Source: Candidatus Gottesmanbacteria bacterium
Lineage (GTDB): Bacteria > Patescibacteriota > Microgenomatia > UBA10105 > UBA927
Reading direction: 5' to 3'
Length of the DNA stretch: 64,000 nt
NCBI GenBank assembly: GCA_963790805.1
Contig: CAWBPL010000002.1
Location: forward strand, 128,696-192,695
Part shown: positions 2,822 through 34,169 of the stretch, one piece after another
How the letters are laid out: each line of letters opens with the position of its first letter
Position numbering within the stretch: position 1 is the stretch's first letter
Program-made: the position numbers and the translations under genes
Notes under the pieces: generated by a model
Databases searched by the model: none
What the model saw: only the letters and a program-made list of their open reading frames with translations
What the model was told of the DNA's origin: nothing

Positions 2822-2938
2822 ACCGCGATTATAGCAAAATCCATCACATCGAAAAGAAATTCTCGTTCCCTCGGATTTCGAAATAACAAAAAAAGCACCT
2901 TTGACTTCTCCCCGCCCAATTCTTATGATGCACATAGT

Positions 2939-3448
2939 ATGAACGATTTATTTGCGGTGGCCCTCAAATCCACAGTCATTTACCTTTTTGTTATTTTTGC
3001 AATCCGGCTGTTCGGAAAAAAAGAACTCGCGCAACTTTCCGTTATTGATCTAGTTTTTATATTATTGATAAGTAATTCCGTCCAAAACGCGATGGTGGGA
3101 AGTAACGTTTCGCTTCTAGCCGGCATTGTCGCGGCAACCACGCTTTTTGCCGTCAACTATATCTTTAAACTTATCCTCTTTCGCTCAAAAAAAATAAGCG
3201 GCTGGATACAGGGCAATCCGCTCATGCTTATATATAAAGGAAGCGTCGTTAAGCCCCATTTGGATCAGGCAAAGATAACTGAGGCGGAACTGGAAGCCGC
3301 CATCCGCGAACACGGAATAGATAAAATCAGCGATGTGGATTTGGCGGTATTGGAAGTCGACGGCAATATCAGTGTCTTATCTGAAAATTTCCGACGGAGA
3401 ACAGTGAAAAAAATAAAGGGCCACAAAATAATCAACAAGACTACGTAA
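2939..3448 (+). CDS. DUF421 (YetF-like) membrane protein
   Basis: MNDLFAVALKSTVIYLFVIFAIRLFGKKELAQLSVIDLVFILLISN is the characteristic DUF421 N-terminus. I moved the start to the ATG at 2939; the 55 upstream codons of the ORF are antisense to the neighbouring gene. Confidence 0.75.
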   Translation: MNDLFAVALKSTVIYLFVIFAIRLFGKKELAQLSVIDLVFILLISNSVQNAMVGSNVSLLAGIVAATTLFAVNYIFKLILFRSKKISGWIQGNPLMLIYKGSVVKPHLDQAKITEAELEAAIREHGIDKISDVDLAVLEVDGNISVLSENFRRRTVKKIKGHKIINKTT

Positions 3449-3451
3449 TAT

Positions 3452-3982
3452 TTATTTCGCCTTTTCAACAAACCCGATGTTTCGTTTCGCGATCTGGATT
3501 GCGGCTGAATGGAGTTTCTCTTCGGATGTAGACCACGTAAGATTTTCTAAAATAACCGGCTTTATACCTTGATCAAATAAATCGTACGCCGTCGCAAGCA
3601 CGCAGCAATCGGTATCAAAACCGCATAAATGAACCTCAGTAATATTGTGTTGTTTTAGTCCTTCCTTAATTCCATGAACCTTGACTGCTGAAAGAATGTT
3701 TTTGTAAAACAGATTCTCTTTATTGGTAAATTCTTTTATTTCGTCAAAAATATCCGTATCAGGTGAATCCGTACAATCCTTCCACTCTCCAACTTGCCAC
3801 AAAGGTGAGCTGGGATTATTTTTAAGAATCGTAAAATAAATGTTCGTATATTCGGATGAATGTCCTACTAAATAATCTCGTATTTTTTTACCGATTCGTT
3901 TTGTTTCATCCGTAAGAAAATATTTTTGAACATCGATAACGATAAGCGCTTTGTTCATAGCAACTAATTGAATTTTTTCCAT
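3452..3982 (-). CDS. Isochorismatase-family cysteine hydrolase (nicotinamidase-like)
   Basis: Contains ALIVIDVQKYF and the catalytic Cys context LCGFDTDCCVLATA. A GGAGG sequence lies just upstream of the ATG at 3982. Confidence 0.85.
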   Translation of the reverse strand: MEKIQLVAMNKALIVIDVQKYFLTDETKRIGKKIRDYLVGHSSEYTNIYFTILKNNPSSPLWQVGEWKDCTDSPDTDIFDEIKEFTNKENLFYKNILSAVKVHGIKEGLKQHNITEVHLCGFDTDCCVLATAYDLFDQGIKPVILENLTWSTSEEKLHSAAIQIAKRNIGFVEKAK

Positions 3983-4620
3983 TTCCCCTCCGATACGACG
4001 GTAACTTTTGTGTCTACCACTTTCACCGCGGTATTGTCATCTATTGTATAGAACGAGTTTTGGGTCTCTTTTGCAAGTTTTTCAAGATAATCGATTCGTA
4101 CTTTCGGAAACCACTCGGAATTAAGGTGCGGCCTGATTTCAAAGTCAACGAAACCCAAACCTTCAACACATTCAAATCTTCCGGTTTTTTCGTAATACAA
4201 AATTTGTTCACTGGACAATGAAACCTGCTTGGCCGTTACCATACTGCCGGCGCTTATTCCCATATAGACTTTTGTTTTCAAAAGTTTAGGTAATAAGGGG
4301 ATTAGTCCGGATTTATGCATCCATGTCAATAAATAATCCGAATTGCCGCCGCCAAAAACAAGAACATCAGCCGCCTCAAAACTCGGAAGCCAGTATTCTT
4401 TACCCACTGCGGAAATATCAATAATGTCAAACGTCTCAAATCCGAGCTTAAGAAGATTGTACATATCATTGACGACGAATTTTTTATCACCGCGCTCTAC
4501 ATTCGCAGCAGTCGGAATAAATGTGACAGCGGATTTCTCAAATGGTTTTCCCAATAACTCCAAAAGTGCGCTTGCAAGTGATTTATTAGTTATGCCAGAA
4601 GACGTCAAAAGGAGTCTCAT
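3964..4620 (-). CDS. Peptidase S51 (dipeptidase E-like) / class I glutamine-amidotransferase-like fold
   Basis: Contains MRLLLTSSG, VLVFGGGNSDYLL and GISAGSMV (nucleophile Ser), which are typical of the S51 family. Confidence 0.8.
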   Translation of the reverse strand: MRLLLTSSGITNKSLASALLELLGKPFEKSAVTFIPTAANVERGDKKFVVNDMYNLLKLGFETFDIIDISAVGKEYWLPSFEAADVLVFGGGNSDYLLTWMHKSGLIPLLPKLLKTKVYMGISAGSMVTAKQVSLSSEQILYYEKTGRFECVEGLGFVDFEIRPHLNSEWFPKVRIDYLEKLAKETQNSFYTIDDNTAVKVVDTKVTVVSEGKWKKFN

Positions 4621-8789: not shown

Positions 8790-9857
8790 ATGGCAGAAAT
8801 AAAGTTTGACCCTACAATGAATAGTATTGTAGGTTTTGATATTATTAATTCTTCTCCAGACGCAAAGGTGGCAGGTTATAGACGATTTCAACAGGCTTTA
8901 CCAGAATTATTAGATCAACCTCTTCCCACATCCGCATTATTATTTCGTATTCACGATTTGATTACACCGGATGTTACGTTAGAAAATTTGCCAGAAAATA
9001 TTAAAAACGATATGGCAATTAGTTTAATGACATTAGATCGGCCTGATGCAGATCACGTTGGAGATGTTGCTCATCAAGTATTCAACAGACTTTCCCATCA
9101 AAAGCCCTATGACACAAAAGCTCCGTTATTATTTGGTGAAGCAAAGAAACAAATAGCATCAGAGTTACAACTATCTACAAAAATATCATTAGCTCCCGTC
9201 CTTAAAGGTGGTTTAAGAACTTTTGGTGCAAGAGAAATTAATGGGTATCCGCCTGAGCCAGTAGTATATGCAAGCCACACTTTAGTCATGGGCGGCGAGG
9301 CGCAAATGTTAGCACTGCAATTTGGACAACCAGGTATGATTTACCCGGATTCTTATTATGGTTTATCAACTGGTTTGAACGAAGTATATACAAAACTGTG
9401 CGATAAGTATGATTCAATACAGCCAGCTTCTACGCAATTATCAGATATATTTTTTCGAGAAGCTTATTTTCAAGTTCTTGGAACAAGGCTGCTACATCCG
9501 TTTTGGGATGGTAACGGAAGGGCTTTTACTGGTCAACTATTTGTTTCCTTATCAAAACAAGGAATTACAGGTGTTGACCTTCAAAAACTTCAAGAAACAT
9601 CAATTGCATTAGGATATGTAAGTGATCGCATGGTTAAACAGGTGTTAAAAAGTGCAAATTTAAGTTTAGTAAGTGATTTACATGGCATACCGGGGACGTT
9701 ACTCATGTGGTTAAATCCTCGTGTACGGGCAGATTATATGAAACGTCTTAAGGCTGAATTGGAGCGCGCAATTGATATAAGCAATCTCCCTGATAACGAG
9801 TATTTTGAAATTGTGGAATCGGGGAAAAAAGAATTAGAGGAGAGCTTTAAAAATTGA
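8790..9857 (+). CDS. Fic-domain protein with a non-canonical motif
   Basis: Contains HPFWDGNGRAFT, against the canonical HxFx(D/E)GNGRxxR; the last Arg is replaced by Thr. The gene is visibly more AT-rich than its flanks. Confidence 0.8.
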   Translation: MAEIKFDPTMNSIVGFDIINSSPDAKVAGYRRFQQALPELLDQPLPTSALLFRIHDLITPDVTLENLPENIKNDMAISLMTLDRPDADHVGDVAHQVFNRLSHQKPYDTKAPLLFGEAKKQIASELQLSTKISLAPVLKGGLRTFGAREINGYPPEPVVYASHTLVMGGEAQMLALQFGQPGMIYPDSYYGLSTGLNEVYTKLCDKYDSIQPASTQLSDIFFREAYFQVLGTRLLHPFWDGNGRAFTGQLFVSLSKQGITGVDLQKLQETSIALGYVSDRMVKQVLKSANLSLVSDLHGIPGTLLMWLNPRVRADYMKRLKAELERAIDISNLPDNEYFEIVESGKKELEESFKN

Positions 9858-12948: not shown

Positions 12949-12954
12949 CGAAAT

Positions 12955-13431
12955 TTACCACTTAAAATGCGCGAAGGCTCTGTTGGCTTCGGCCATACGG
13001 TGAACAGTATCACGTCGTTTAATCGCTTCGCCCTGACCTTTGGCGGCTTCCATAAGTTCGACCGCTAATTTTTCTCCGAATGATTTAAATTCTTTATTGC
13101 TTCGTTTGCTGGCAAACTGGATGATCCATCGCATGGCAAGGGCTACCCTTCGGTCACCGCGTACTTCAGTGGGCACCTGATACGAAGCGCCGCCAACTCT
13201 GCGGGCTTTTACTTCCATTTTGGGGCCCACGGTGTTAATGGCGGTTTCAAATACTTTAATCGGATCCTCGCCTTTGGCCTTAATTGCATCAAGTGCGCCG
13301 TAGACCTGCCGTTCAGCCACCCGTTTTTTGCCGCTTTTCATGACGCGGTTAATAAATCGCGTCAAAAGCCGGTTTCCGTATATAGGATCGGCTGGCAACA
13401 TTGGTTTAAAAACTCGTTTTGATCTGCTCAT
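12955..13431 (-). CDS. rpsG: 30S ribosomal protein S7
   Basis: Full-length match to S7 (PDPIYGN, VKARRVGGASYQVP, NRAFAHFKW). Confidence 0.97.
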   Translation of the reverse strand: MSRSKRVFKPMLPADPIYGNRLLTRFINRVMKSGKKRVAERQVYGALDAIKAKGEDPIKVFETAINTVGPKMEVKARRVGGASYQVPTEVRGDRRVALAMRWIIQFASKRSNKEFKSFGEKLAVELMEAAKGQGEAIKRRDTVHRMAEANRAFAHFKW

Positions 13432-13434
13432 AGA

Positions 13435-13872
13435 TTAATTTGCCGATGCGGCGGCGGGCCCCGGACCTCCGGCTTTCGTTCCATAGCGGCTTCGGCCCTT
13501 TTTCCTGTTGGCGACCCCTGTCATATCATATTTTCCGCGAACAATGTGATATTTTACACCGGGTAAATCCGGTACTCGACCGCCACGAACGAGCACGATA
13601 GCATGCTCTGTAAGTTCATGTCCAATACCCGGAATATAGGCTGTCACTTCCTGTTTGTTAGAAAGCCGCACACGGGCAACTTTTCGAAGCGCCGAGTTCG
13701 GCTTTTTCGGCGTCATGGTCTTCACAAGCGTCACGACTCCCCGTTTAAACGGAGATGGCAACTGCTTTGTCAGTCTGTCTTTGGCATTAAAAAACTTGCG
13801 AAGCGCCGTCGCTTTAATTTTTTTCGACTTACCGTGTCTTCCGTGTCTGATGAGTTGATTGACTGTTGGCAT
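13435..13872 (-). CDS. rpsL: 30S ribosomal protein S12
   Basis: Contains [28 protein letters not shown] and [21 protein letters not shown]. It has a short Gly/Pro/Ala C-terminal tail. Confidence 0.97.
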
Positions 13873-13876
13873 AGGT

Positions 13877-16800
13877 TTAAACTTCTATCTTTGCCCGTTC
13901 CGAAGATACCGGAATGAGTCTGCCGATTATAACGTTTTCCTTAAGTCCCAGCAACTTGTCTTCTTTACCGGATAACGCGGCGTCTGTTAAGACGTTGGTC
14001 GTTTCCTGGAATGATGCAGCTGAAAGCCATGACTCGGTGAATAGCGATGCTCGCGTAATTCCAAGCATGATAATCTGCGCGGTCGCCGGCTCTCCGCCTG
14101 AGGCCAAAACACGGGCATTTTCCTCCTGGAATCTGATCCGGTCAACAAGCTCACCCGGAAGAAGAGTCGTATCTCCCGATGAGTCAATACGAACCTTGTC
14201 GCTCATCTTTCGCACAATCACTTCAAAATGCTTGTCAGAAATCTGAATTCCCTGTGATTCATAAACCCGTTGAATCTCGGTAATAAGATACTTTTGCGCG
14301 CCCCGAAGACCCCTGACCTGAAGGACTTCCTTAAGATCAAGATATCCGCTGGAAAGCTGGTCACCGGCTGCGACTGAATCGCCGTCTTTGACTTTCAGTT
14401 CGCTCGTCAAGGGAATCACGTATTCACGCTCTTCCGGCGGCTTCATGGCCGTATTGCGAACCCGAACAGTATATCCTGATTCTGTCTCAACAATCTCAAC
14501 TTTTCCGGCAATTTCGCTGATAGGCGATAAAATTCTCGGAGTCCTCGATTCGAACAATTCTTCCACCCGAGGCAAACCCTGCGTCACGTCAAGTCCGACA
14601 ATTCCACCTGCATGACGAACACGCATAGTAAGCTGCGTTCCCGGCTCTCCGATGGACTGGGCGGCGATAACGCCAACAGGAGTACCTACTTCCACATGAG
14701 CATTCGTTGAAAAATCTCTGCCATAGCATTTGGCACACATGCCAACCGGTGCCTGACAACTGATAGGAGATCGAACAAGTACCGTCTCTACGCCGTGTTC
14801 GTCCAACAATTTAGCATTTTGTTCTGTAATTTCTTCTCCTGCCGCAATAAGAACTTTTTTGCTGTTTGGTGCCACGATATCAACGGCGGCAAATCGGCCG
14901 ATGACGCGAAGAATAAACGATGCCTGCCTGTCTTCTTTACGATGGACTTCCCAACCCTCGCTGGTACCACAATCTTCGATTCGTACAATCATGTCATGCG
15001 ATACGTCAACCAGCCGTCGGGTCAAATATCCTGCATCGGCGGTCTTAAGCGCTGAATCAGTAAGACCCTTTCGTGAGCCTCTCGTACTTGTTACGTATTC
15101 AAAAATCGAAAGTCCTTCACGATAATTGCTTTTCGTCGGCAATTCCACAATCTTCCCGAGCGGATCGACGACTAATCCTTTGATGGCTGACAATTGCTTC
15201 AGCTGATCTTTGGACGCACGAGCGCCACCGGAATCGATAATCATTTTAACCGGATTATCCGCTTTCATCCCCTGCCATGTAAGATCTGCAAGCCGTTCAG
15301 TGACTTCGATCCAGATTTCATTGGACAGTCGTTTCTTTTCCTCGAGTGTAATAAGACCTTGCTGGAAATTTTGATCAACCTCTTTTACTTTCTTTTCCGC
15401 ATCTTTGACGATTGATTGTTTTTCATCAACCATTACACAATCAAATACGGAAACGGAAAGTCCGCCGCAGATGGTCGCCCCCATGAATCCGATATTTTTA
15501 ATAGAATCGATAATTGTTACGACTTCCTCTTTGGGATACAGGGTAAGCGCTTTGGTAATAATCGATTTAATTGTTGCTGCCCTCACCGGATCATTGATAA
15601 ATCGAAGTTCAGAGGGAAGAATCTCGTTAAAGAGTACCCGCCCGACGGTTGTCACCTGCCAAACGCCATTTATTTGAAGCCGGATCGATGATCTAAGTCC
15701 CACTTTGCCGGATTGATAGGCAAAAATAAGATCCTGTTCGTCGCTATACATCGTCATGTTCTTTTCATCTATTTTTGTTTCCGGTATTTCAACGGTCGTT
15801 AAGTAGTAACAACCCAATACCATTTCTTTGTTTGGAACTGTGATCGGTGATCCATCAGCTGGCTTTAACAAATTATGCGTCGGCAACATCAAATGAATTG
15901 CTTCATACTGACTTTCACCGGAAAGCGGTATGTGAACAGCCATTTGATCTCCATCAAAATCAGCGTTGTATCCTGCACAGACACATGGATGAATCCGGAT
16001 TGCTGATCCCTCGATGAGGATAGGATAAAATGCCTGAATACCCAGCTTATGAAGTGTCGGCGCGCGATTAAGAAGCACCGGATGATTCTTGGTAATTTCC
16101 TCAAGAATATCAAAAACTTCCGGCGTCCGTCGTTCCAGAACGTTTTTGGCATTTTTGACGTTCGGAGCAATACCGCGAACAATAAGTTCGCGAAGCACAA
16201 ACGGCTTAAACATTTCAAGCGCCATTTCTTTCGGAAGTCCGCATTGCGTAAGATTAAGTTCGGGTCCCACGACAATAACGGAGCGGCCTGAATAGTCTAC
16301 GCGTTTTCCAAGAAGGTTCTGCCGGAACCGGCCCTGTTTACCGCGCAACATATCGGATAACGATCGAAGAGGAGCAATAACTGCCCGTGAACTCGGACGC
16401 TGCGTCACATCAATCAAGCTGTCAACCGCTTCCTGAAGCATGCGCTTTTCATTTCGAAGAATAATTTCAGGCGCTCCCAAATCCATAAGGTGCTTCAATC
16501 TGTTGTTGCGGTTAATGACGCGCCGATACAAATCGTTCAAATCAGATGTGGCGAATCGTCCGCCGGTGAGCTGTACCATCGGGCGCAAATCCGGAGGAAT
16601 CACCGGAAGATTGGACAATATAACCCACGACGGGCTGATTGAGGCTTTTCGCATGCCATCAACGACGCGAAGCCGTTTGGTCGCTTTTATATGGCGCTGT
16701 CCGCTCGTATTTTGAATCTCTTCGCGAAGTTCCGCTGCCAATTTATCCAAATCCAGATGTTTGATGACCTGAGAAACTGCTTCGGCTCCCATGCCGACCT

Positions 16801-17600: not shown

Positions 17601-20600
17601 TTACTCCTTTGTCGTAACCGCTTCGTCCTCCGGTTTCACTTCTGCAACCGTTGTTGCAGGAGCTTCCTCAGCGACGGTTTCCTCACCACTTGCTTTAGCA
17701 ATCTCTTCTGCTTCTTTTTTCACAATGTCATCAGCAACTGTCTGCGATGTCGTTGCAGAAGTAGGTGTCGCGGGTAACGGTTTTGCAGTCACGACTCCGG
17801 TCGGGGAAACGCTTAAGCCTAACGCCTGCAGTTCTTTTACCAACACTTTAAATGATTCAGGGATTGTTGATTCAGGAATATCTGAGCCTTTGACAATTGC
17901 TTCAAAAGCCTTCGCGCGACCTACGACATCGTCTGATTTAATTGTCAACATTTCCTGAAGAACGTGGGCGGCCCGATGTGCTTCAAGTGCCCAGACTTCC
18001 ATTTCTCCCAATCGTTGACCACCCATTTGAGCTTTTCCACCGAGAGGTTGTTGCGTAACGAGTGAGTATGGTCCTGTTGAGCGTGCATGAGTCTTATCTT
18101 CCACCATGTGAATAAGTTTCAAGATGTATCCGACACCGACAACAACTTCTTCTTTAAACGGTTCGCCTGTTCTTCCGTCAAACAATACGCTCTTGCCGGA
18201 AACGGGTACTCCCGCCTCTTTCAGCTTTTCAACAATTCTGTCTTCTTTCACGGGTTCAAAGACGGGGAGCGCAACTTTTATGTTCAGTTTTGATGCGGCG
18301 AGTCCCAAATGAGCCTCAAGAAGCTGGCCCAAATTCATACGGGAAAGGACGGAAAGCGGGCTTATAATGACATCAACGACAGTTCCGTCTGCTAAATACG
18401 GCATATCGCCCTGCGGAACGACTTTGGAAATAACGCCCTTGTTGCCGTGTCGGCCTGCAAGCTTGTCACCTACCACAACTTTGCGCATCTGAGCGACTTT
18501 TACAACAATCTTCCGGTTGGTCCCCGGTTCAAGTTCATCGCCTTTTTCTTTATCAAGAATCTTAACATCTATGACGGTCCCCCGTTCTCCATGCGGTACA
18601 CGAAGACTTGTATCACGGACTTCACGGGCTTTTTCACCGAAAATCGCGCGAAGCAACCGTTCTTCTGCTGTCAATTCTGTTTCACCTTTCGGTGCGATTT
18701 TACCAACCAGAATATCATTCGGACTTACTTCGGCGCCGACGACAACAATGCCGTTTTCATCCAAATTGCGAAGCGCTTCTTCTCCGACGTTGGGAATATC
18801 ACGCGTTGTTTCCTCGGGCCCCAATTTCGTATCAACGACACTGGCTTCATATTCTTCAATGTGGACTGAGGTAAGCACATCTTCTTTCACCAATCGATCG
18901 GAAATAACGATAGCATCCTCATATCCCAGACCATCAAAACTCATGTAAGCAATCGTAACGTTCGCGCCGAGGGCTAATTCGCCTTCGTCGCTTGCCGGTG
19001 CATCAACAAGCACATGGCCTTTCTTCACTTTATCGCCGGTTTTGGCAGAAACGCGTTGGTTATAGGCGGTTGACTGTGCGGAACGGGAATATTTCATGAC
19101 GGCATATGTTTCCGTCTGCCCGTCTTTCGTTTCAAAAATTACTTTGGATCCGTCTGCATATGTCACGACGCCGTCATCTTTTGCGCGAATCACGCGACCC
19201 ATGGTTTCAGAAATAGCTGCTTCCATACCGGTGCCAACTATCGGCGACTGCGGGTTAAGAAGCGGTACGGCCTGACACTGCATGTGCGTACCCATAAGCG
19301 CACGGTTTGCTTCATCGTGAGCGATAAATGGAATAAGCGATGCCGGAGCGCCGACTACCTGTCGCGGCACAACGTCAATATATTCAACGAGCGTTGCATC
19401 TGCTTCAAGGAACTCTCCTTTGTACCGGACCGGTACGCGCTCATCAACGATATTGCCCTCAGTGTCGATTGCAATTCCTGCGTGCGTAATATATTTGTAT
19501 TGTTCATCGCTGGCATCCAAATAGACGACTTCATTGGTGAGGTGCATGACCTGTTTGCTGCCGCGAGTGATTTTTTCAACTTTTCTGTACGGAGTTTCCA
19601 GAAATCCGTATTCGTTGACACGCGCATAGAGGGACATGTAGGTGACAAGTCCGATATTCGGTCCTTCAGGAGATCGGACCGGACAAATGCGGCCGTATTG
19701 CGATGCATTAATGTCACGGATGGAAAATGAAGCACGTTCCCTAGAAATTCCGCCTGTGCCCATGACAGTCAGACGACGAAGATTATCTACTTCGGCCAGA
19801 GGATTCGTCTGATCCAGAATAGTTGACAACTGGCTGGTCCGGAAAAAATCGTTGATTGACGCGATGATCGGGCGGGCGTTGACAAGCTGCATCGGAGTCA
19901 AATCTTCAGCAGAAGGGCCAGCTAAGCTCATTTTTTCACGAACTGATCGCTCAAGTCTCAAAAGTCCGACACGGAATGCGTTGGTCGCCACAAGCTCTCC
20001 CACTCTTCTGACTCTACGGTTGCCAAGATGATCGATATCATCCGCATCATCCTTGCCGTTGGCTAAATCAATAAGCTTTTTGATACTGCCGATAATATCC
20101 TCTTTTGTTAATACCCAGTGTTCACGGTCATTAGCAACGGAAATACCGAGCTTTTTGTTCATCTTATACCGGCCGACCCGCTCAAGAGAGTATCGGCGAT
20201 AATCAAAGAACATGGTGCGAAGGAGTTCCTGTGCGTTATCCAACACAATGGGTTCTCCCGGTCGAAGTTTGCGGTACAGTTCCAAAACCGCTTCCGTATG
20301 GTTTTTCGTCGGATCTTTGACAAGAGTGGCCTCGATGTAGTGGTGATCCGGATTGACGTCTGCTGATTTAAACGCTTCAATAATTTCTTCATTCGTACCC
20401 AAACCGATTGCCCGAAGGAATGTTGATGCCACGAATTTACGCCGTCGGTCAATTCTGACCATCAAAACATCGTTTCTGGTCATAATAAACTCAAGCCAGC
20501 TTCCGTGCATCGGACGGATTTCAGCGCTATGGAGCGTTTTACCGGTTGTTGAATCCATGGTTCCGGTAAAATAAATTCCCGGAGAGCGCACCAGCTGATT

Positions 20601-20996
20601 GACGACGCATCGTTCAATACCATTAATAATGAATGTTCCGTTTTCCGTCATGGCCGGTATATCGCCCAAAAATACTTCCTGCGTCACGTGATGGCCTGTT
20701 TGTTTGTTGGCAAGTGTCGCTGTTACTTTGAGGGGCATGTCAAACGTCAATCCTTTTTCAAGTGCAATCTGAGGGGTCAAGCGCGGGCGGCCGAAGTAAT
20801 AATCACCAAATGCGAGTTCCCAGTTTTTTCCGGTAAAATCAGTAATCGGCGTTACTTCAACAATGAGGTCTTTAATTCCCTGTTCCAAAAACCACTGATA
20901 CGATTCGCGTTGAACCAAGGTAAGGTCCAGCGTCGGAATATCGGTAAAATTTTTTCCCCAATACAATCGTGGTGATGTGGTTGTATCTTTGCCCAT
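17601..20996 (-). CDS. rpoB: DNA-directed RNA polymerase subunit beta
   Basis: Conserved blocks run throughout the sequence (GRHGNKGVISKV, GGQRLGEMEVWALEA). It has a ~70-aa acidic/Thr-rich C-terminal tail. Confidence 0.98.
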   Translation of the reverse strand: MGKDTTTSPRLYWGKNFTDIPTLDLTLVQRESYQWFLEQGIKDLIVEVTPITDFTGKNWELAFGDYYFGRPRLTPQIALEKGLTFDMPLKVTATLANKQTGHHVTQEVFLGDIPAMTENGTFIINGIERCVVNQLVRSPGIYFTGTMDSTTGKTLHSAEIRPMHGSWLEFIMTRNDVLMVRIDRRRKFVASTFLRAIGLGTNEEIIEAFKSADVNPDHHYIEATLVKDPTKNHTEAVLELYRKLRPGEPIVLDNAQELLRTMFFDYRRYSLERVGRYKMNKKLGISVANDREHWVLTKEDIIGSIKKLIDLANGKDDADDIDHLGNRRVRRVGELVATNAFRVGLLRLERSVREKMSLAGPSAEDLTPMQLVNARPIIASINDFFRTSQLSTILDQTNPLAEVDNLRRLTVMGTGGISRERASFSIRDINASQYGRICPVRSPEGPNIGLVTYMSLYARVNEYGFLETPYRKVEKITRGSKQVMHLTNEVVYLDASDEQYKYITHAGIAIDTEGNIVDERVPVRYKGEFLEADATLVEYIDVVPRQVVGAPASLIPFIAHDEANRALMGTHMQCQAVPLLNPQSPIVGTGMEAAISETMGRVIRAKDDGVVTYADGSKVIFETKDGQTETYAVMKYSRSAQSTAYNQRVSAKTGDKVKKGHVLVDAPASDEGELALGANVTIAYMSFDGLGYEDAIVISDRLVKEDVLTSVHIEEYEASVVDTKLGPEETTRDIPNVGEEALRNLDENGIVVVGAEVSPNDILVGKIAPKGETELTAEERLLRAIFGEKAREVRDTSLRVPHGERGTVIDVKILDKEKGDELEPGTNRKIVVKVAQMRKVVVGDKLAGRHGNKGVISKVVPQGDMPYLADGTVVDVIISPLSVLSRMNLGQLLEAHLGLAASKLNIKVALPVFEPVKEDRIVEKLKEAGVPVSGKSVLFDGRTGEPFKEEVVVGVGYILKLIHMVEDKTHARSTGPYSLVTQQPLGGKAQMGGQRLGEMEVWALEAHRAAHVLQEMLTIKSDDVVGRAKAFEAIVKGSDIPESTIPESFKVLVKELQALGLSVSPTGVVTAKPLPATPTSATTSQTVADDIVKKEAEEIAKASGEETVAEEAPATTVAEVKPEDEAVTTKE

Positions 20997-21089
20997 TTGA
21001 ATAATTTCTTGCGAAAAAACTACTTCTATGAACGACGAAAAGAAGCGAACAATGAACGTTCGCCTCTAAACTTATTGACTTAACTTCGT

Positions 21090-21117
21090 ATTATACTCAC
21101 TTTCTTTGGCTTGTCAA
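21090..21117 (-). promoter_or_regulatory. Consensus sigma70 promoter upstream of rpoB (TTGACA-16 nt-TATAAT)
   Basis: The reverse strand reads TTGACAagccaaagaaagtgagTATAAT. The -35 element is at 21117..21112 and the -10 at 21095..21090, about 90 nt upstream of the rpoB ATG. Confidence 0.6.
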
Positions 21118-21137
21118 TATGCGACTGGTTTGTCCTT

Positions 21138-21980
21138 TTATGAACGGGAATTTTTCAAAATATACGTATCCTGTGAATAGCCGCCGACGCCCACAAACGT
21201 CGCGCGGCCTGCAACAATCGCTTCATATGGTCGACATACGCGGCACCCTTCTTTTGAGGCACAAACGAAATGGTCTAGCTTCCGTGCCAGCGCTATCTTT
21301 TTGGCAATTTCCAAAATCCGCGCGTTAGCCTCTGCAATATCCGGCAATGGTACCTCATTTGGCGTATTATCGCGGTCCAGATACCAGTAGCTTGCCTTCG
21401 ACACGGGGAATTTCTGACAATTTTTTACCAACAATAAATATATAGGAAGCTGCAATGAATCCGGATCTTCATCAAACTTGCCGGTTTTAAAGTCAATTAT
21501 GTGTACGGACTCGGATGCTTCAAGATATTCAATCCAGTCGATTTTTCCGCAAAGAATGATGTTATCTTCTTCCGACAACCAGAAATACGGCAAATCCTGA
21601 CGTATTTTTATGGCTTTCCTGCCTAAGGGACCCCGATTGACCATAATCCGTTTAATCATGGCCGCTCCCCGCGCTTTAAATTTTGCTTCCTCGTCACTGT
21701 TGGAAAATCCTCCCAAATCACCCGAAATGGTTTTCCATGACTCATCAAATTGATCCAAAAGTGATTTTTTAAACCGGTCCTCAACGGGAAGAGACGATAA
21801 CGATTCAACCACTCCGTGCACCGCCTGACCCAATGCCAACGGCGGTTGCATCAGCATAATTTTATGATTCGTCTTGGGGTCGCGGTATACGTTTTTGAGG
21901 TAATACGCGCGCGGGCACTTGAGATAGTCGCTTATGGATGAATGGGATACCCAAACCGCTGAATATTTATCTTTTATCAT
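21138..21980 (-). CDS. PD-(D/E)XK nuclease with a Cas4/AddB-type four-Cys (Fe-S) arrangement
   Basis: An N-terminal Cys sits in DYLKCPRAYYL, with a C-terminal cluster CASKEGCRVCRPY. Core motifs are GKIDWIEY...HIIDFKTGK. The track start at 22016 is a TTG; I prefer the ATG at 21980. Confidence 0.7.
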   Translation of the reverse strand: MIKDKYSAVWVSHSSISDYLKCPRAYYLKNVYRDPKTNHKIMLMQPPLALGQAVHGVVESLSSLPVEDRFKKSLLDQFDESWKTISGDLGGFSNSDEEAKFKARGAAMIKRIMVNRGPLGRKAIKIRQDLPYFWLSEEDNIILCGKIDWIEYLEASESVHIIDFKTGKFDEDPDSLQLPIYLLLVKNCQKFPVSKASYWYLDRDNTPNEVPLPDIAEANARILEIAKKIALARKLDHFVCASKEGCRVCRPYEAIVAGRATFVGVGGYSQDTYILKNSRS

Positions 21981-27600: not shown

Positions 27601-27730
27601 TCGTACAAATATCAGGAGAGTGGCGAGGGATCTAGCCCGATGACCCACCAGCAACCGGTTTCGATTAATCGTGAATACGGTGCTACAGCTAGACCCCGAC
27701 TGAAACGTCGGGATCGATATGATCACACGA
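27601..27730 (+). promoter_or_regulatory. SAM-I (S-box) riboswitch
   Basis: AUAUCAGGAGAGUGGCGAGGGAUCUAGCCCGAUGACCCACCAGCAACC...CGGUGCUACAGCUAGA aligns almost base-for-base with the S-box core (CUUAUCAAGAGAGGUGGAGGGACUGGCCCGAUGAAACCCGGCAACC...GGUGCCAAUUCC). P4 is CCCGAC-UGAAAC-GUCGGG. It sits directly upstream of metK. Confidence 0.85.
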
Positions 27731-28891
27731 GTGATAAAAACGCTCCAACTCCACGCATCTGAATCCGTCACCGCGGGGCACCCCGATAAAATTTGCGATC
27801 AGATAGCCGCTGAAATACTGGATCAGGCTATTATTGCCTGCCGCCCTTCTCACACCCGTCCGCGCGTGGCAATCGAGGTATCGGCAAAAGGAAATATAAA
27901 CGGCGGGACGCTTCTTGTATTCGGAGAAGTAACGCTTCCGAAGGGCGTAAAACTTCAGTATGAAAATATTGCACGGCGGACGATCGCGGAAATCGGCTAT
28001 ACGGATCCCAATGCGGGATTTCACTCGAAGTTAAAGGAATTAATTATCAGGATCACCGAACAATCCGCGGATATAAATAATGGTGTAACCAAAAAGCGAA
28101 CTGGCGCCGGCGATCAGGGGCTCATGTTCGGCGCGGCAGTTGATGAAAACCCGCAGCTTATGCCGATGCCGATCGTCATTGCTCATGATCTGACGCTTAC
28201 CTATACAAAAATGCAGAAAACAAAAATGCCGTATTTGCGTCCCGACGGGAAAGCGCAGGCGGTGCTTGTTTATAAAAACGGAAAACCTGCCGGCATCCAT
28301 AAAATAATCATCGCCGCTTCGCATGACAAAGGCATCACGTTAAAACAATTAAGAAATGATGTTATACGCAACATTATTACGCCGGTACTGAAGTCTCACG
28401 GGTTTACTATTTCAAATCCCGAAGAACAAATAGTCGTTAACGGTGCGGGCCCGTGGACCACCTACGGTCCGCTTGCCGATGCCGGTACGACGAACCGGAA
28501 AATAATCGTTGATTCCTACGGCGGCAGGTTTTCCCACGGCGGCGGCGGATTTAACGGCAAGGATCCCACGAAAGTCGATCTGGCCGGAGCCGTCGGCGCG
28601 AGATATGTCGCCAAACGGCTGGTCGCGGAAGGGTTTGCGAAAAAAGTGCAGATAGAGGTGAGCTACGTCATCGGACTTCCCGATCCGCTTTCCATAAATA
28701 TCGAAACGTTTGATACGGAGAAAAAATCCGGAAAAATTATTGAAGGGCGCGCCCGCGAATTACTGGATCTTTCGGTTGACGGCATTATCGAAGGATTACA
28801 ACTATTTCAACCGATATATAGATCTGCATCCGTCGGAGGATTCTTTGGACGGGACATATTTCCGTGGGAACAAATCGAAAAAACCGGCTGA
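27719..28891 (+). CDS. metK: S-adenosylmethionine synthetase
   Basis: Contains SESVTAGHPDKICDQI, GAGDQGLMFGAA and GGGGFNGKDPTKVD. Confidence 0.97.
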   Translation: MITRVIKTLQLHASESVTAGHPDKICDQIAAEILDQAIIACRPSHTRPRVAIEVSAKGNINGGTLLVFGEVTLPKGVKLQYENIARRTIAEIGYTDPNAGFHSKLKELIIRITEQSADINNGVTKKRTGAGDQGLMFGAAVDENPQLMPMPIVIAHDLTLTYTKMQKTKMPYLRPDGKAQAVLVYKNGKPAGIHKIIIAASHDKGITLKQLRNDVIRNIITPVLKSHGFTISNPEEQIVVNGAGPWTTYGPLADAGTTNRKIIVDSYGGRFSHGGGGFNGKDPTKVDLAGAVGARYVAKRLVAEGFAKKVQIEVSYVIGLPDPLSINIETFDTEKKSGKIIEGRARELLDLSVDGIIEGLQLFQPIYRSASVGGFFGRDIFPWEQIEKTG

Positions 28892-31105: not shown

Positions 31106-31144
31106 GTTTACTAATAATTATATTACACCCTTTAAGGAACTTGA

Positions 31145-31162
31145 TACAACCTCCCGTTTCAT
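31145..31162 (-). repeat. Copy C of the ATGAAACGGGAGGTT leader module
   Basis: The reverse strand reads ATGAAACGGGAGGTTGTA, against copy B ATGAAACGGGAGGTTATA. Confidence 0.55.
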
Positions 31163-31168
31163 CGTGAT

Positions 31169-31642
31169 TTACACAAAAACGTATTTTAAAAAATCATGTT
31201 CGGCATGTTCTATGCGTGTACGCGTTACCATGGTAAATCCCATTTTTTCATAAAAGACACGCGCTCTCCCTGAATACACCCACAACTCTCGCGCGCGTTT
31301 TTCGGATACCTCGTACAGTAATTTTTTCATGAGTAAGCTGCCAATTCCTTTACCGCGATGTTCCTCGGTAACGGCAAAATAACTAACCCAATAAATATCT
31401 TTTCCGTAGGGAAACAGAGTTCCCAACGACTTACCCGCCCAACTTCCATCGTCTTTATACCAACCAATAATGCCAATAATGCGACCGTCTTGTATCGCTA
31501 CAAATACGTTATTATCATGTTGGCGAAGAGACTTGTTATAAAACTCTATGACCCGATGCGATGGCCCAACATCCGTTTTTACCGCCAAATCCCGAGCCTC
31601 ATACTTGTTCGCATCTGTAAGTGACTCTATCTGAATATCCAT
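31169..31642 (-). CDS. GNAT-family N-acetyltransferase
   Basis: Contains the acetyl-CoA-binding pattern YFAVTEEHRGKGIGSLLMKKLL and has the typical ~160-aa size. Confidence 0.85.
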   Translation of the reverse strand: MDIQIESLTDANKYEARDLAVKTDVGPSHRVIEFYNKSLRQHDNNVFVAIQDGRIIGIIGWYKDDGSWAGKSLGTLFPYGKDIYWVSYFAVTEEHRGKGIGSLLMKKLLYEVSEKRARELWVYSGRARVFYEKMGFTMVTRTRIEHAEHDFLKYVFV

Positions 31643-31647
31643 ATAAC

Positions 31648-31676
31648 CTCCCGTTTCATTTGGCTATAGTACAACA
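31648..31676 (-). repeat. Copy B of the repeated promoter/leader module
   Basis: The + strand reads ctcccgtttcatttggctatagtacaacaa. It supplies the GGGAGG SD of the GNAT gene. Confidence 0.6.
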
Positions 31677-31764: not shown

Positions 31765-34041
31765 TTATTGCACCATTAGAGCTTTCGCTAATGAGTCAAA
31801 AATGATTTTGTGTTCATCTCGATATTTATCAATATCACCAATTTTCGAACCTTTGACTTCTTTGGGTTTTTCTAACTCATTACGAATATAACCAGTCAAG
31901 TTGTTATCGTCGGTTATATACAAATATCCACTATCGTATTTATTACCACTTGAATAATCTGATTCGTCCAAAACAAGACTTTGAATTTCTAAACAATTAC
32001 CATCAAATATGCCATTTATTTTAATTTTTGAATCTCCTCCTTGTTTAATATTTAATATATCATTTTCTTTAATAATTTGAATAACATATCGACCTCCTAT
32101 CATTAATTCCCAATATCCAGACCAATCGAATATATGACCGGTAGAAAGTTGCTCAACATAACCTATTTTATATTGACTTAACAAAGAACCTTGGCTACTT
32201 AATTGTTTTTCGCTTTTTTCTTCATCATCTACGGAGGTTTGTACAGATCCTAAAGTTTTATCTACTCGTGTATCATAACCTGATTTATTATCTCTTATAA
32301 TATTTCTTAGCATATCTAATGCCTTATCTTTCAAACCAATTTGAAGATATTGTGATGCTATATTGCTTCCCGCTAAAGTATTGCCTAGAGAAAATGATTT
32401 CTTGTACATCTCCATGCACTTAATGGGCATATTTTCCCGTTCATAAAGCACACCAAGATTGTTAGTTATATTTGAAATATCTTTGCTATTTTCTAATGCA
32501 ATTAAATAATGGTATAAGGATGAGGGCCTATCGTTTATTTCTGAATATTCATAGGCACAAGTAAATCTAACATCACTATCAAATGGATTAATGTTCAAGT
32601 ATGCCTCTAAAAATAATAAACCTTTGTTTTTGCTACCTGTCTCTAAATAGTGATTTCCAAGTATTCTAAAAAGATTTGTTTTTTTCTCAATATCTGTAGT
32701 AATTCGGATGAGCGCCTTAATTCTTTCATCAAAATCATGTTTTAGATTACATTTACAATGTGCGCAAACATCAGAGAAATGTAACAGATAAGACAAAATG
32801 ATTTCCGGATCGTCTTCTAAGGATAGCGCTTTCTCTATATATTCATGGGAAATCCTATGCGATTTATTGTTATAAAAATATTTGGATAAGTAATATGCCG
32901 CAAAAGAATATTTAGTATTTTTTGTCTCTATCGATTTAAGATCTTTTGGGTCATTAACATATTTATCAACACAGTCTACAGAGTTTTGTACCTTTTCTTC
33001 AGTATATTTGGCCTTAATTTCTTCGATAATAGTACGACCTGCTTTTTCCTTCTTTTCCCTATTTAGATCAATCAATCCCCACTCTAAAATTTTTAAACTA
33101 ACCATAAGATCTTCTTTAAACCTGTTGATAAAATTCGCCTTATCCTCACCAATTAACAGGTTATAAATTCTTGGACCCGGACTCCTTTTCGTAAGATATC
33201 TTTTTGAATTATCACTTATCTTATCTAAGATTAAATTTGTTTCTTCAATAATATCATCAACGTTCGAAAAACGGAGTTTCGCGTCATCTACTATCATTTT
33301 GCTAAGTAAACTTTCTTGTATTAGTGGTAAATATGGATTCGAACCCTCGTACAATGATGCTAGATCACCTATTTCCTCACGAAAAATTTTTACTTTACCA
33401 GTGAGGATAAAGAGCAATACTTTTCCTAGCGAATATATATCCGATTTTTCATTTGCCTGAGATGGGTTTTTATATTGTTCGGGAGCTATAAAATGCAAAG
33501 GGCCAACAATTTCATCCTCTTCTGTAATTTCACCATCACCCGCTTGTTCTTTTAGCAAACCTATACCAAAATCTGTAATTAAGATACTTTTTTGTGTGGG
33601 GTAAAGGAGAATATTGTCGGGTTTCAAATCTCTATGTATAACGCCAGCCTTATGAGCAGAATTTACGCCTATTAATATCTCTTTAAATAATCGAAGTGCG
33701 GCTTCAACATCGTTAAAATAAAAATCATTATCCCTTAAACTCCCATGAGGGGAATAATCCATAACATAAAATACGCTTGTGTCTTTATTATCTAATACTT
33801 CTTGTAAGTTATCGTCATATATCCTTACTACATTCCTATTGCCGTTGAGTTTTTTAATTATGCTTATTTCTGTTTGAATTCTCTTTAGTTTCTTCTTTTG
33901 AAACTTTTTAAGCGAAAATCGTTTTAAAGCGTATATTTGATCATCTTCAGAATTTCTAACTTTTAATACGGTTGCTTGACCTCCTGATTTAATTTTTTCT
34001 AAAACTATCCATTTTTTATGATAACTTTTCTTTTGATTCAT
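31765..34041 (-). CDS. Ser/Thr protein kinase with a TPR-like middle region and an unassigned beta-rich C-terminal domain
   Basis: Contains the complete Hanks motif set: SGGQATV loop, YALKRF Lys, HRDLKPDNILL, DFGIG and FIAPEQ. The middle region is helical-repeat (TPR-like). The last ~130 aa are unrecognised. The gene is strongly AT-rich relative to its neighbours. Confidence 0.85.
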   Translation of the reverse strand: MNQKKSYHKKWIVLEKIKSGGQATVLKVRNSEDDQIYALKRFSLKKFQKKKLKRIQTEISIIKKLNGNRNVVRIYDDNLQEVLDNKDTSVFYVMDYSPHGSLRDNDFYFNDVEAALRLFKEILIGVNSAHKAGVIHRDLKPDNILLYPTQKSILITDFGIGLLKEQAGDGEITEEDEIVGPLHFIAPEQYKNPSQANEKSDIYSLGKVLLFILTGKVKIFREEIGDLASLYEGSNPYLPLIQESLLSKMIVDDAKLRFSNVDDIIEETNLILDKISDNSKRYLTKRSPGPRIYNLLIGEDKANFINRFKEDLMVSLKILEWGLIDLNREKKEKAGRTIIEEIKAKYTEEKVQNSVDCVDKYVNDPKDLKSIETKNTKYSFAAYYLSKYFYNNKSHRISHEYIEKALSLEDDPEIILSYLLHFSDVCAHCKCNLKHDFDERIKALIRITTDIEKKTNLFRILGNHYLETGSKNKGLLFLEAYLNINPFDSDVRFTCAYEYSEINDRPSSLYHYLIALENSKDISNITNNLGVLYERENMPIKCMEMYKKSFSLGNTLAGSNIASQYLQIGLKDKALDMLRNIIRDNKSGYDTRVDKTLGSVQTSVDDEEKSEKQLSSQGSLLSQYKIGYVEQLSTGHIFDWSGYWELMIGGRYVIQIIKENDILNIKQGGDSKIKINGIFDGNCLEIQSLVLDESDYSSGNKYDSGYLYITDDNNLTGYIRNELEKPKEVKGSKIGDIDKYRDEHKIIFDSLAKALMVQ

Positions 34042-34070
34042 ATTTTCACTTTTGGCTATATATACCGCGC

Positions 34071-34079
34071 ATTATACCA
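34071..34079 (-). promoter_or_regulatory. Extended -10 element (TGGTATAAT) upstream of the kinase gene
   Basis: The reverse strand reads aaaTGGTATAATgcgcgg, about 30 nt upstream of the ATG at 34041. Confidence 0.4.
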
Positions 34080-34169
34080 TTTAGAATCAATCTTATATTC
34101 CAGATATTTAAATATGTTTATATGAAGCACTCGAGATCATCACAAAATCTCAACTATGAGAGAAATGGG

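Follow-up and report, generated by a model that had tools for sequence, protein, structure and literature searches.

A horizontally acquired kinase-TPR-barrel gene downstream of obg in Candidatus Gottesmanbacteria, member of a rare and mobile family

Stand-alone eukaryote-like Ser/Thr kinases can confer phage resistance, and this gives a precedent for defence by a single kinase gene. In Stk2, activation comes from a phage protein and the ensuing broad phosphorylation is lethal to the cell (PMC6532042), while PD-T4-6 is a single-gene Ser/Thr kinase system that came out of a functional selection in E. coli (PMC9519451). In PknG, tetratricopeptide repeats (TPRs) mediate partner or signal recognition and couple signal detection to substrate phosphorylation (PMC8546545). 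Here we analyse a gene of a Candidatus Gottesmanbacteria bacterium that can be compared with each of these. It lies next to obg in a stretch of 64,000 nucleotides (assembly GCA_963790805.1, contig CAWBPL010000002.1, positions 128,696 to 192,695), which we call the window and to which coordinates refer unless another contig is named. The open reading frame (ORF) occupies 31765..34041 on the minus strand and is complete, with an ATG start, 758 codons and a stop codon; a preliminary description, made from the sequence alone, had extended the feature to 34079, an end point that takes in a promoter-like motif upstream of the coding sequence. The product combines a kinase domain, a helical region with TPRs and a C-terminal beta-barrel. 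Hanks kinases and TPRs are already known, as is the order of the two. What is new is the three-part architecture with its orphan barrel, and the existence of the family as a single-gene mobile unit in bacteria of the candidate phyla radiation (CPR) type and in others. The safest statement is that this is a mobile, self-contained cargo gene, encoding a probably active kinase with a putative fast-evolving C-terminal recognition module.

Domain architecture and comparison with described kinases

The Hanks-type Ser/Thr kinase domain (residues 8-279; 33205..34020, minus strand) is that of an RD kinase, with an HRDLKPDN catalytic loop, DFG and APE motifs, and Pfam PF00069 (Pkinase) matches residues 13-221 with 122 bits (E-value 3.7e-35; cut-off 31.7). 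In an alignment of full-length relatives, K40, E58, H136-R137-D138, K140, N143, D157-F158-G159, P187-E188, D201 and R257 are identical in all 22 family members, and position 173 of the activation loop is Thr or Ser in every one of them, being Thr in the window protein. Since the active site is invariant across the alignment, catalysis is likely to be under selection. In an AlphaFold2 model the predicted local distance difference test score (pLDDT) of the kinase domain is mostly 75-92, and the best Foldseek matches of the domain are PknB, MELK and Stk1, with template modelling (TM) scores to the target of 0.6-0.8. Judged by its conserved residues, the domain is a complete RD-type kinase, predicted to be catalytically competent and free of pseudokinase signs, and in this our data agree with the preliminary description, which had called the kinase complete and apparently active. 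A Pfam scan found no PASTA or other extracellular module in the window protein, which also has no transmembrane or signal peptide-like segment (maximum 19-residue hydropathy 1.44); the protein is therefore predicted to be cytoplasmic and soluble.

An AlphaFold2 model of the whole protein, built on the family alignment (mean pLDDT 81.5), places the kinase at residues 1-279, a disordered linker at 279-290 and stacked helices at 292-580, with helices overall spanning residues 292-632. The helical, TPR-like region that had been put at some 450 residues is thus recovered at a length of about 340, and its first half carries no TPR match. This N-terminal helical part (residues 291-450; 32692..33171, minus strand) is modelled with pLDDT 86-96 over helices 292-447, and its residues 291-430 have no relatives outside the family, matches to TPR profiles beginning only at about residue 432. 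Word-indexed searches returned nothing for the helical region, not even known members of the family, and only three family members for the non-kinase part; being insensitive, these searches have no evidential value. About four TPRs occupy residues 451-580 (32302..32691, minus strand). The family profile of the helical region matches TPR structures over approximately residues 432-590, namely consensus TPR, SPINDLY and OGT (E 9e-18 to 1e-8), and the matches obtained with the single sequence fall short of their thresholds, both for Pfam TPR_1, TPR_2 and TPR_20 and for PEP_TPR_lipo (1.9e-8) and MamA (5e-6). Between helices 412-428 and 437-447 lies a loop of the form C426-x2-C429-x-C431-x3-H435-D436 (32734..32766, minus strand), in which C429, C431 and H435 are kept in 21 of the 22 members, the loop being lost in member P0012. 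The C-x-C-x3-H-D element may be a metal or redox site, and may resemble the redox- or metal-sensitive module of PknG.

The TPRs are followed by an acidic, low-confidence loop (about residues 582-598, pLDDT below 50) and a long connecting helix (593-632), together at 32146..32301 on the minus strand, and then by the eight-stranded up-and-down beta-barrel (residues 636-735, with strands at 642-734 in the AlphaFold2 model; 31837..32136, minus strand) and a C-terminal amphipathic helix (residues 736-758, helix 737-757; 31768..31836, minus strand). Modelled alone, the barrel domain reaches a pLDDT of 85.7 and a predicted TM score of 0.76, and W640, G642, W644, G705 and G717 are invariant in the family. 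Foldseek found nothing in the PDB below E 1e-3 (best E 8.6e-3) and no significant structural match in BFVD (best E 2.8e-3); the barrel has no PDB sequence match and, across the 22 members, falls in no Pfam family, Lipocalin_4 matching that of a single member weakly (E 0.082). The weak Foldseek matches are all of calycin type, comprising designed ligand-binding barrels, CRABP2/FABP, TbpB/LbpB and lipocalins (TM 0.4-0.58). In predicted topology the domain fits the calycins, its eight strands forming an antiparallel up-and-down barrel with a helix after it and the first strand bearing a conserved W-x-G-x-W. It has no sequence-level relation to lipocalins, FABP/CRABP or TbpB/LbpB. A HMMER search with the barrel profile against 1.84 billion cluster representatives gave ten proteins, made up of seven family members of about 750 residues, two fragments and a single repeat-protein artefact. 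This exhaustive search found the barrel in no other architecture, and the barrel is an orphan domain restricted to the kinase-TPR-barrel architecture. The beta-rich C-terminal domain that the preliminary description could not assign is accordingly without an assignment in Pfam, in PDB sequences or by significant Foldseek match, and is exclusive to the family; it is not a PASTA-type housekeeping C-terminus. On average, pairwise identity is 55% in the kinase and drops to 46% in the TPRs, 40% in the N-terminal helical part, 29% in the barrel and 27% in the C-terminal helix, the least conserved part of the protein. A C-terminus that serves as a fast-evolving recognition module would be expected to give such a gradient.

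What the protein has in common with PD-T4-6, Stk2, MAD6, the PASTA kinases and PknG is confined to the generic kinase core or a generic layout, and it belongs to none of these groups. As in Stk2, a stand-alone cytoplasmic Hanks kinase with presumed non-kinase sensor regions is encoded by a single, strain-variable, horizontally acquired gene; unlike in Stk2, the PADLOC Stk2 model aligns only over positions 128-325 of 500 (E 3.9e-23), leaving the Stk2-specific regions unmatched, and Stk2 is not known to have a TPR-plus-barrel C-terminus. PD-T4-6 is likewise a single-gene kinase, and its PADLOC-DB models (PDLC04039-04064) match residues 1-220 of the window protein (E 6e-40), whereas nothing past the kinase domain aligns and the match is one of generic kinase fold. 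The best PADLOC match is to mad6 of the MADS system (PDLC04138; 1e-40), again confined to the kinase domain, and NCBIfam antiphage_MADS6 (NF047741) scores 109 bits against a cut-off of 460, with no MADS component in the four downstream window neighbours tested. The PASTA kinases Stk1 and PknB differ in having a PASTA module and a transmembrane helix, and their NCBIfam model (NF033483) reaches 111 bits against a cut-off of 450. With PknG the protein shares a soluble kinase followed by TPRs in the same domain order, a likeness that is architectural only. In contrast to PknG, it has no N-terminal rubredoxin-like region, its kinase starting at residue 8, it carries the extra orphan barrel, and its family is patchy and mobile where PknG is lineage-conserved; NCBIfam actinobacterial kinase models score far below cut-off, and there is no orthology to actinobacterial PknG.

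The island beside obg and the distribution of the family

The kinase gene has a GC content of 0.309, and 0.235 at third codon positions (GC3), against means of 0.454 (standard deviation 0.040) and 0.454 (standard deviation 0.071) for the 50 window ORFs of at least 200 residues, the kinase gene included. The deficit peaks at third codon positions and so does not stem from amino-acid composition, and the kinase, helical and barrel parts are equally AT-rich. In a 150-bp profile the low-GC tract extends over about 2.4 kb (31765-34169), from the stop codon of the kinase gene to the stop codon of obg, with an abrupt edge at obg. The flanking genes outside the tract have a GC content of 0.516 (obg) and 0.422 (the gene of the GNAT family), in keeping with the contrast reported in the preliminary description. 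The AT-rich upstream spacer (34042..34169, minus strand; 128 bp, GC 0.305) is compositionally part of the tract, and the island proposed there as a single gene consists indeed of one gene and its upstream spacer, situated just downstream of obg. The same description had placed the kinase at the end of a run of accessory-type genes. By annotation this holds, the neighbours being DUF2130, YgjP-like/DUF45 and GNAT genes and a small membrane ORF without a Pfam match, but these genes are near-normal in composition. The kinase gene is also found in an independent assembly from another sequencing run (L172), which is 99.97% identical over 11.5 kb in the same gene order and differs within the kinase gene by one nucleotide; because the two assemblies agree, the junctions are not an assembly artefact or chimera.

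Obg served as the anchor for retrieving 80 metagenome loci (59-81% identity), of which only one, L089, is syntenic; the lineage is sparsely sampled. In L089, whose Obg is 79% identical, the upstream order of sortase, thymidine-phosphorylase-like gene, small ORF, MltG and Obg is kept, whereas the genes after obg are a GreA-like one and two unrelated ORFs, with neither the kinase nor the GNAT gene. On the evidence of this single informative relative, the kinase is not a conserved feature of the obg locus. L089 further encodes, between MltG and obg (2905-4590 of that contig), an extra membrane protein of 561 residues with a glycine-rich tail that is absent from the window; neither this protein nor the genes after obg in L089 have a homologue in the 64 kb of the window. 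The presence of this extra gene on the MltG side indicates that both sides of obg are rearrangement points.

A search of 5.8 billion proteins added 23 clusters of relatives that are full-length or nearly so, mostly 38-49% identical over 93-100% of the query, which with the window protein gives a family of about 24 clusters at 90% identity. Beyond the family there are only generic kinase-domain matches of at most 43% identity, and the named members, from Candidatus Collierbacteria, are called only 'hypothetical protein' or 'PpkA'. Close relatives occur in four contigs, representing three species, among 185,579 species-representative genomes. The three hosts are a Pseudomonadales genome bin, Collierbacteria and a Saccharimonadia bin, the copy in the last being a contig-end fragment that is 57% identical over the kinase domain, and other family contigs carry Firmicutes-like and actinobacterial-like neighbours. 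A 4.5-kb contig labelled 'Saccharibacteria' (L011) was discarded as an extra host, as it is 100% identical to a Collierbacteria contig (L010); one sequence is here filed under two taxa, uncultured Candidatus Saccharibacteria and Candidatus Collierbacteria.

Nine independent genomic contexts were examined, and they have nothing in common except the kinase gene; none of the others shares flanking genes with the window. The closest homologue (L001) has tyrosine integrases on either side, two in all, together with helix-turn-helix (HTH) genes, a gene for a Schlafen/AlbA_2-HATPase protein and an AbiLi/AbiLii pair. The kinase gene of L007 adjoins a serine recombinase and Rep_1. The contig of member P0017 carries a type IV secretion system coupling protein, a relaxase, a DNA methyltransferase and a Hypoth_Ymh protein, L169 an IS1595 transposase, a weak relaxase match and a topoisomerase, and L171 many small ORFs with a DDE transposase directly downstream of the kinase. 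Mobile-element genes are thus present in five of the nine contexts. UmuDC-like genes surround the copy in L170 and small hypothetical genes that in L006, while the Collierbacteria copy (L002) and the window copy lie among housekeeping genes. Outside the window, the GC content of the kinase gene was measured in six distinct sequences, and in each it is lower than that of the flanks, by 4-10 points. When the flanking ORFs of eight loci were compared all against all, no conserved partner gene, FHA-domain gene, phosphatase or antitoxin emerged. Small XRE-type HTH proteins recurred in three to four of the eight loci in this comparison; in three they are encoded within 2 kb of the kinase (L001 8158-8388, L006 5647-5868 and L169 4563-4787; 73-76 residues, about 45% identical to one another), and the window has none. 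A contig that had been considered as a small circular element bearing recombinase, Rep_1 and kinase (L008) was rejected, as it has no terminal overlap and lies wholly within L007. The atypical composition with sharp borders, the absence from L089 and the varying contexts together establish that the window gene was horizontally acquired as a single-gene island, and orthologues of normal composition at the same locus throughout the lineage, which by the preliminary description would have refuted its proposal, are not indicated by L089 or by the nine unrelated contexts. The family as a whole is rare and moves between unrelated bacteria, often on mobile elements.

Possible functions of the kinase

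The interpretation that we favour, tentatively and by analogy, is that of a sensor kinase directed against invaders and following the abortive-infection logic of Stk2. The C-terminal sensor would hold the soluble kinase in check until the TPR superhelix and the orphan barrel bind a trigger, which could be an invader protein, from a phage or a mobile element, or a small ligand held in the barrel. Binding of the trigger would relieve autoinhibition or drive oligomerisation, the kinase would autophosphorylate its activation loop at Thr173, and it would then phosphorylate host proteins, invader proteins or both, such that growth is arrested or the invader is blocked. All the functional steps, from trigger and autoinhibition to substrates and protection, are inferred from distribution, context and architecture. 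The rarity and patchiness of the family were counted in favour of defence, as they are typical of accessory immunity genes; so were the foreign composition, the mobile-element contexts, the invariant active site and the drop in identity towards the C-terminus, and the lack of a conserved partner gene fits a self-contained sensor-effector. In L001, AbiLi (3.5e-70), AbiLii and the Schlafen/AlbA_2-HATPase protein (7.6e-23 with Argonaute-associated PADLOC models) are all encoded within 9 kb, at 19478-21185 for the pair and 12953-14437 for the Schlafen-type protein, and by these matches the context qualifies as a bona fide defence island.

A number of observations weigh against a role in defence. 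The PADLOC matches are generic, in that housekeeping PASTA kinases of the Stk1/PrkC type, used as controls (P0065 and P0078), match the PD-T4-6 models at 1e-153 to 1e-156 and mad6 at 1e-72 to 1e-79, and other unrelated kinases also match such models. Because these controls score far better than the window protein, there is no sequence tie to the defence kinases, and the PD-T4-6, mad6 and Stk2 matches were dropped as evidence. More generally, the PD-T4-6 and MAD6 kinase models of PADLOC match any Hanks kinase and are insufficient on their own to call defence. The NCBIfam models for MAD6, BREX PglW and other equivalogs all stay far below their cut-offs. Of the nine contexts, a small sample, L001 alone has known defence genes close to the kinase, and there are none among the tested neighbours in L002, L006, L007, L169, L170, L171 and the window; evidence specific to the defence role ventured in the preliminary description is thin. 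The window and Collierbacteria copies sit among housekeeping genes and lack any marker of a mobile element nearby. The viral contigs of IMG/VR yielded no member of the family, and neither INPHARED phages nor PLSDB plasmids gave a match to the non-kinase part, so that nothing links the family directly to phage or satellite hotspots. Finally, a kinase joined to TPRs is a recurrent signalling architecture, present with the TPRs C-terminal in five of 42 bacterial Ser/Thr kinase families (bioRxiv 10.1101/2025.01.12.632604).

This last point leads to a serious rival explanation, which we regard as doubtful but which has several observations in its favour, namely that the gene encodes a horizontally acquired signalling kinase of PknG type. 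Its TPRs would scaffold a partner, either substrate or sensor, its barrel would bind a metabolite, and the kinase would tune host physiology instead of fighting invaders. The kinase-then-TPR layout is that of PknG (PMC8546545) as well as that of the five families just mentioned. The weak fold matches of the barrel are to small-ligand binders (CRABP/FABP, lipocalins, designed barrels). The possible likeness of the nearly invariant CxC-x3-HD loop to a module of PknG points the same way. The Collierbacteria copy sits among housekeeping genes and recurs in many samples (63 indexed blocks), which suggests stable retention, and the neighbourhoods are of housekeeping type in two hosts. A physiological regulator, however, would be expected to be conserved within a lineage and compositionally ameliorated, whereas this gene has a very patchy distribution (three species among 185,579), stands out as foreign by composition in all hosts measured, is missing at the obg locus of the nearest relative L089, is embedded in mobile elements in most of its copies (L001, L007, the P0017 contig, L169 and L171) and has no conserved partner, FHA-domain or phosphatase gene nearby.

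It is rather unlikely, though there are precedents and the rival is a serious one, that the kinase is cargo serving the mobile element itself, be it as an addiction-type toxin, as a regulator of the element, as a means of competitor exclusion or as an anti-defence factor acting by mass phosphorylation. The kinase-kinase-phosphatase (KKP) Ser/Thr kinases of Pf prophage control the prophage and also defend the host (PMC11341870), and the kinase of phage T7 disarms defences (PMC13645617); the former would be a model for the element regulator and the latter for the anti-defence factor. The position of the gene next to Rep_1 and a serine recombinase in L007, its occurrence elsewhere in integrase-, relaxase- or transposase-bearing regions, and the small XRE-type regulators within 2 kb in three loci would all accord with such a role. 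Against it, no mobile-element gene is found near the window copy or, among the genes called there, near the Collierbacteria copy; the loci have no cognate phosphatase or antitoxin in common, and no copy was present in the phage, viral-contig and plasmid collections searched. Where the exclusion is phage exclusion, moreover, this explanation overlaps with that of a sensor kinase acting against invaders. A secreted or contact-delivered effector kinase, with which an episymbiotic reduced-genome bacterium would act on its host cell, is very improbable, since its few favourable points (the 1.22-Mb contig from which the window comes, several family members from Collierbacteria and Saccharimonadia, and a weak kinase-domain similarity to the effector kinases LegK1 and XopAU in NCBIfam that is far below cut-offs and generic to kinases) are set against a protein devoid of signal peptide-like or transmembrane segments, no adjacent secretion genes and a family that extends to a Pseudomonadales bin and to contigs with Firmicutes-like and actinobacterial-like neighbours, so that the effector alternative of the preliminary description is left with no evidence.

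Taken further, the sensor-kinase interpretation would make the whole family an unrecognised single-protein immune sensor of CPR/Patescibacteria and other bacteria, in which the barrel reads an infection ligand or phage protein, the TPR arm activates the kinase and the cell shuts down. We consider this wider proposal unlikely, but if true, it would provide kinase-based immunity with a sensor module of a new kind, and would add to the few defence genes that are native to ultra-small bacteria, which are known to carry few recognised defence systems. Should the defence role itself be correct, the TPR and orphan-barrel sensor architecture would join the small set of kinase-based anti-phage systems, and the gene would be a testable single-gene immunity candidate from ultra-small bacteria. 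Even without defence, the locus offers a clean single-gene horizontal insertion beside obg, and the family a defined new domain exclusive to one architecture.

Expression signals, repeats and other features of the window

The gene had been credited with its own extended -10 promoter. The motif, TGGTATAAT (34071-34079, minus strand), is present 30 nt upstream of the ATG, but it is a consensus match only and is not statistically special, the extended -10 motif occurring five times in the window against 2.5 expected, with 17 of 100 shuffles reaching five. A search at the locus revealed neither a -35 element nor a terminator separating obg from the kinase gene, and read-through from obg is therefore possible. 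No Shine-Dalgarno-like sequence precedes the kinase ATG. The small membrane-protein and GNAT genes have near-identical 19-nt translation-start regions (31144-31162 and 31641-31659, minus strand), of the form ATGAAACGGGAGGTT-N-TAT, with a strong Shine-Dalgarno sequence.

No tRNA, integrase, flanking direct repeat or target-site duplication was found at the window locus. A 19-nt inverted repeat, complementary at 17 of 19 positions, brackets nearly the whole island, with its left arm (31804..31822) inside the 3' end of the kinase ORF and its right arm (34131..34149) 21 nt downstream of the obg stop codon, and none of 300 shuffles of the flanks reaches 17/19. No clear equivalent is present in seven other family loci, where L007 has a 17/19 match of low complexity. 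Since one arm lies within the ORF and the seven other loci show nothing comparable, terminal inverted repeats were dropped as a signature of insertion, and the significance of the repeat is uncertain.

Two further features were recorded elsewhere in the window. An ORF of 355 residues at 8790-9857 on the plus strand is the second of odd composition (GC 0.375, GC3 0.25) and, matching no Pfam family, may represent a further gene of foreign origin. Directly upstream of metK (27719-28891), an S-adenosylmethionine (SAM) riboswitch (RF00162; 27606-27723, plus strand) scores 50.5 bits, above the gathering score.

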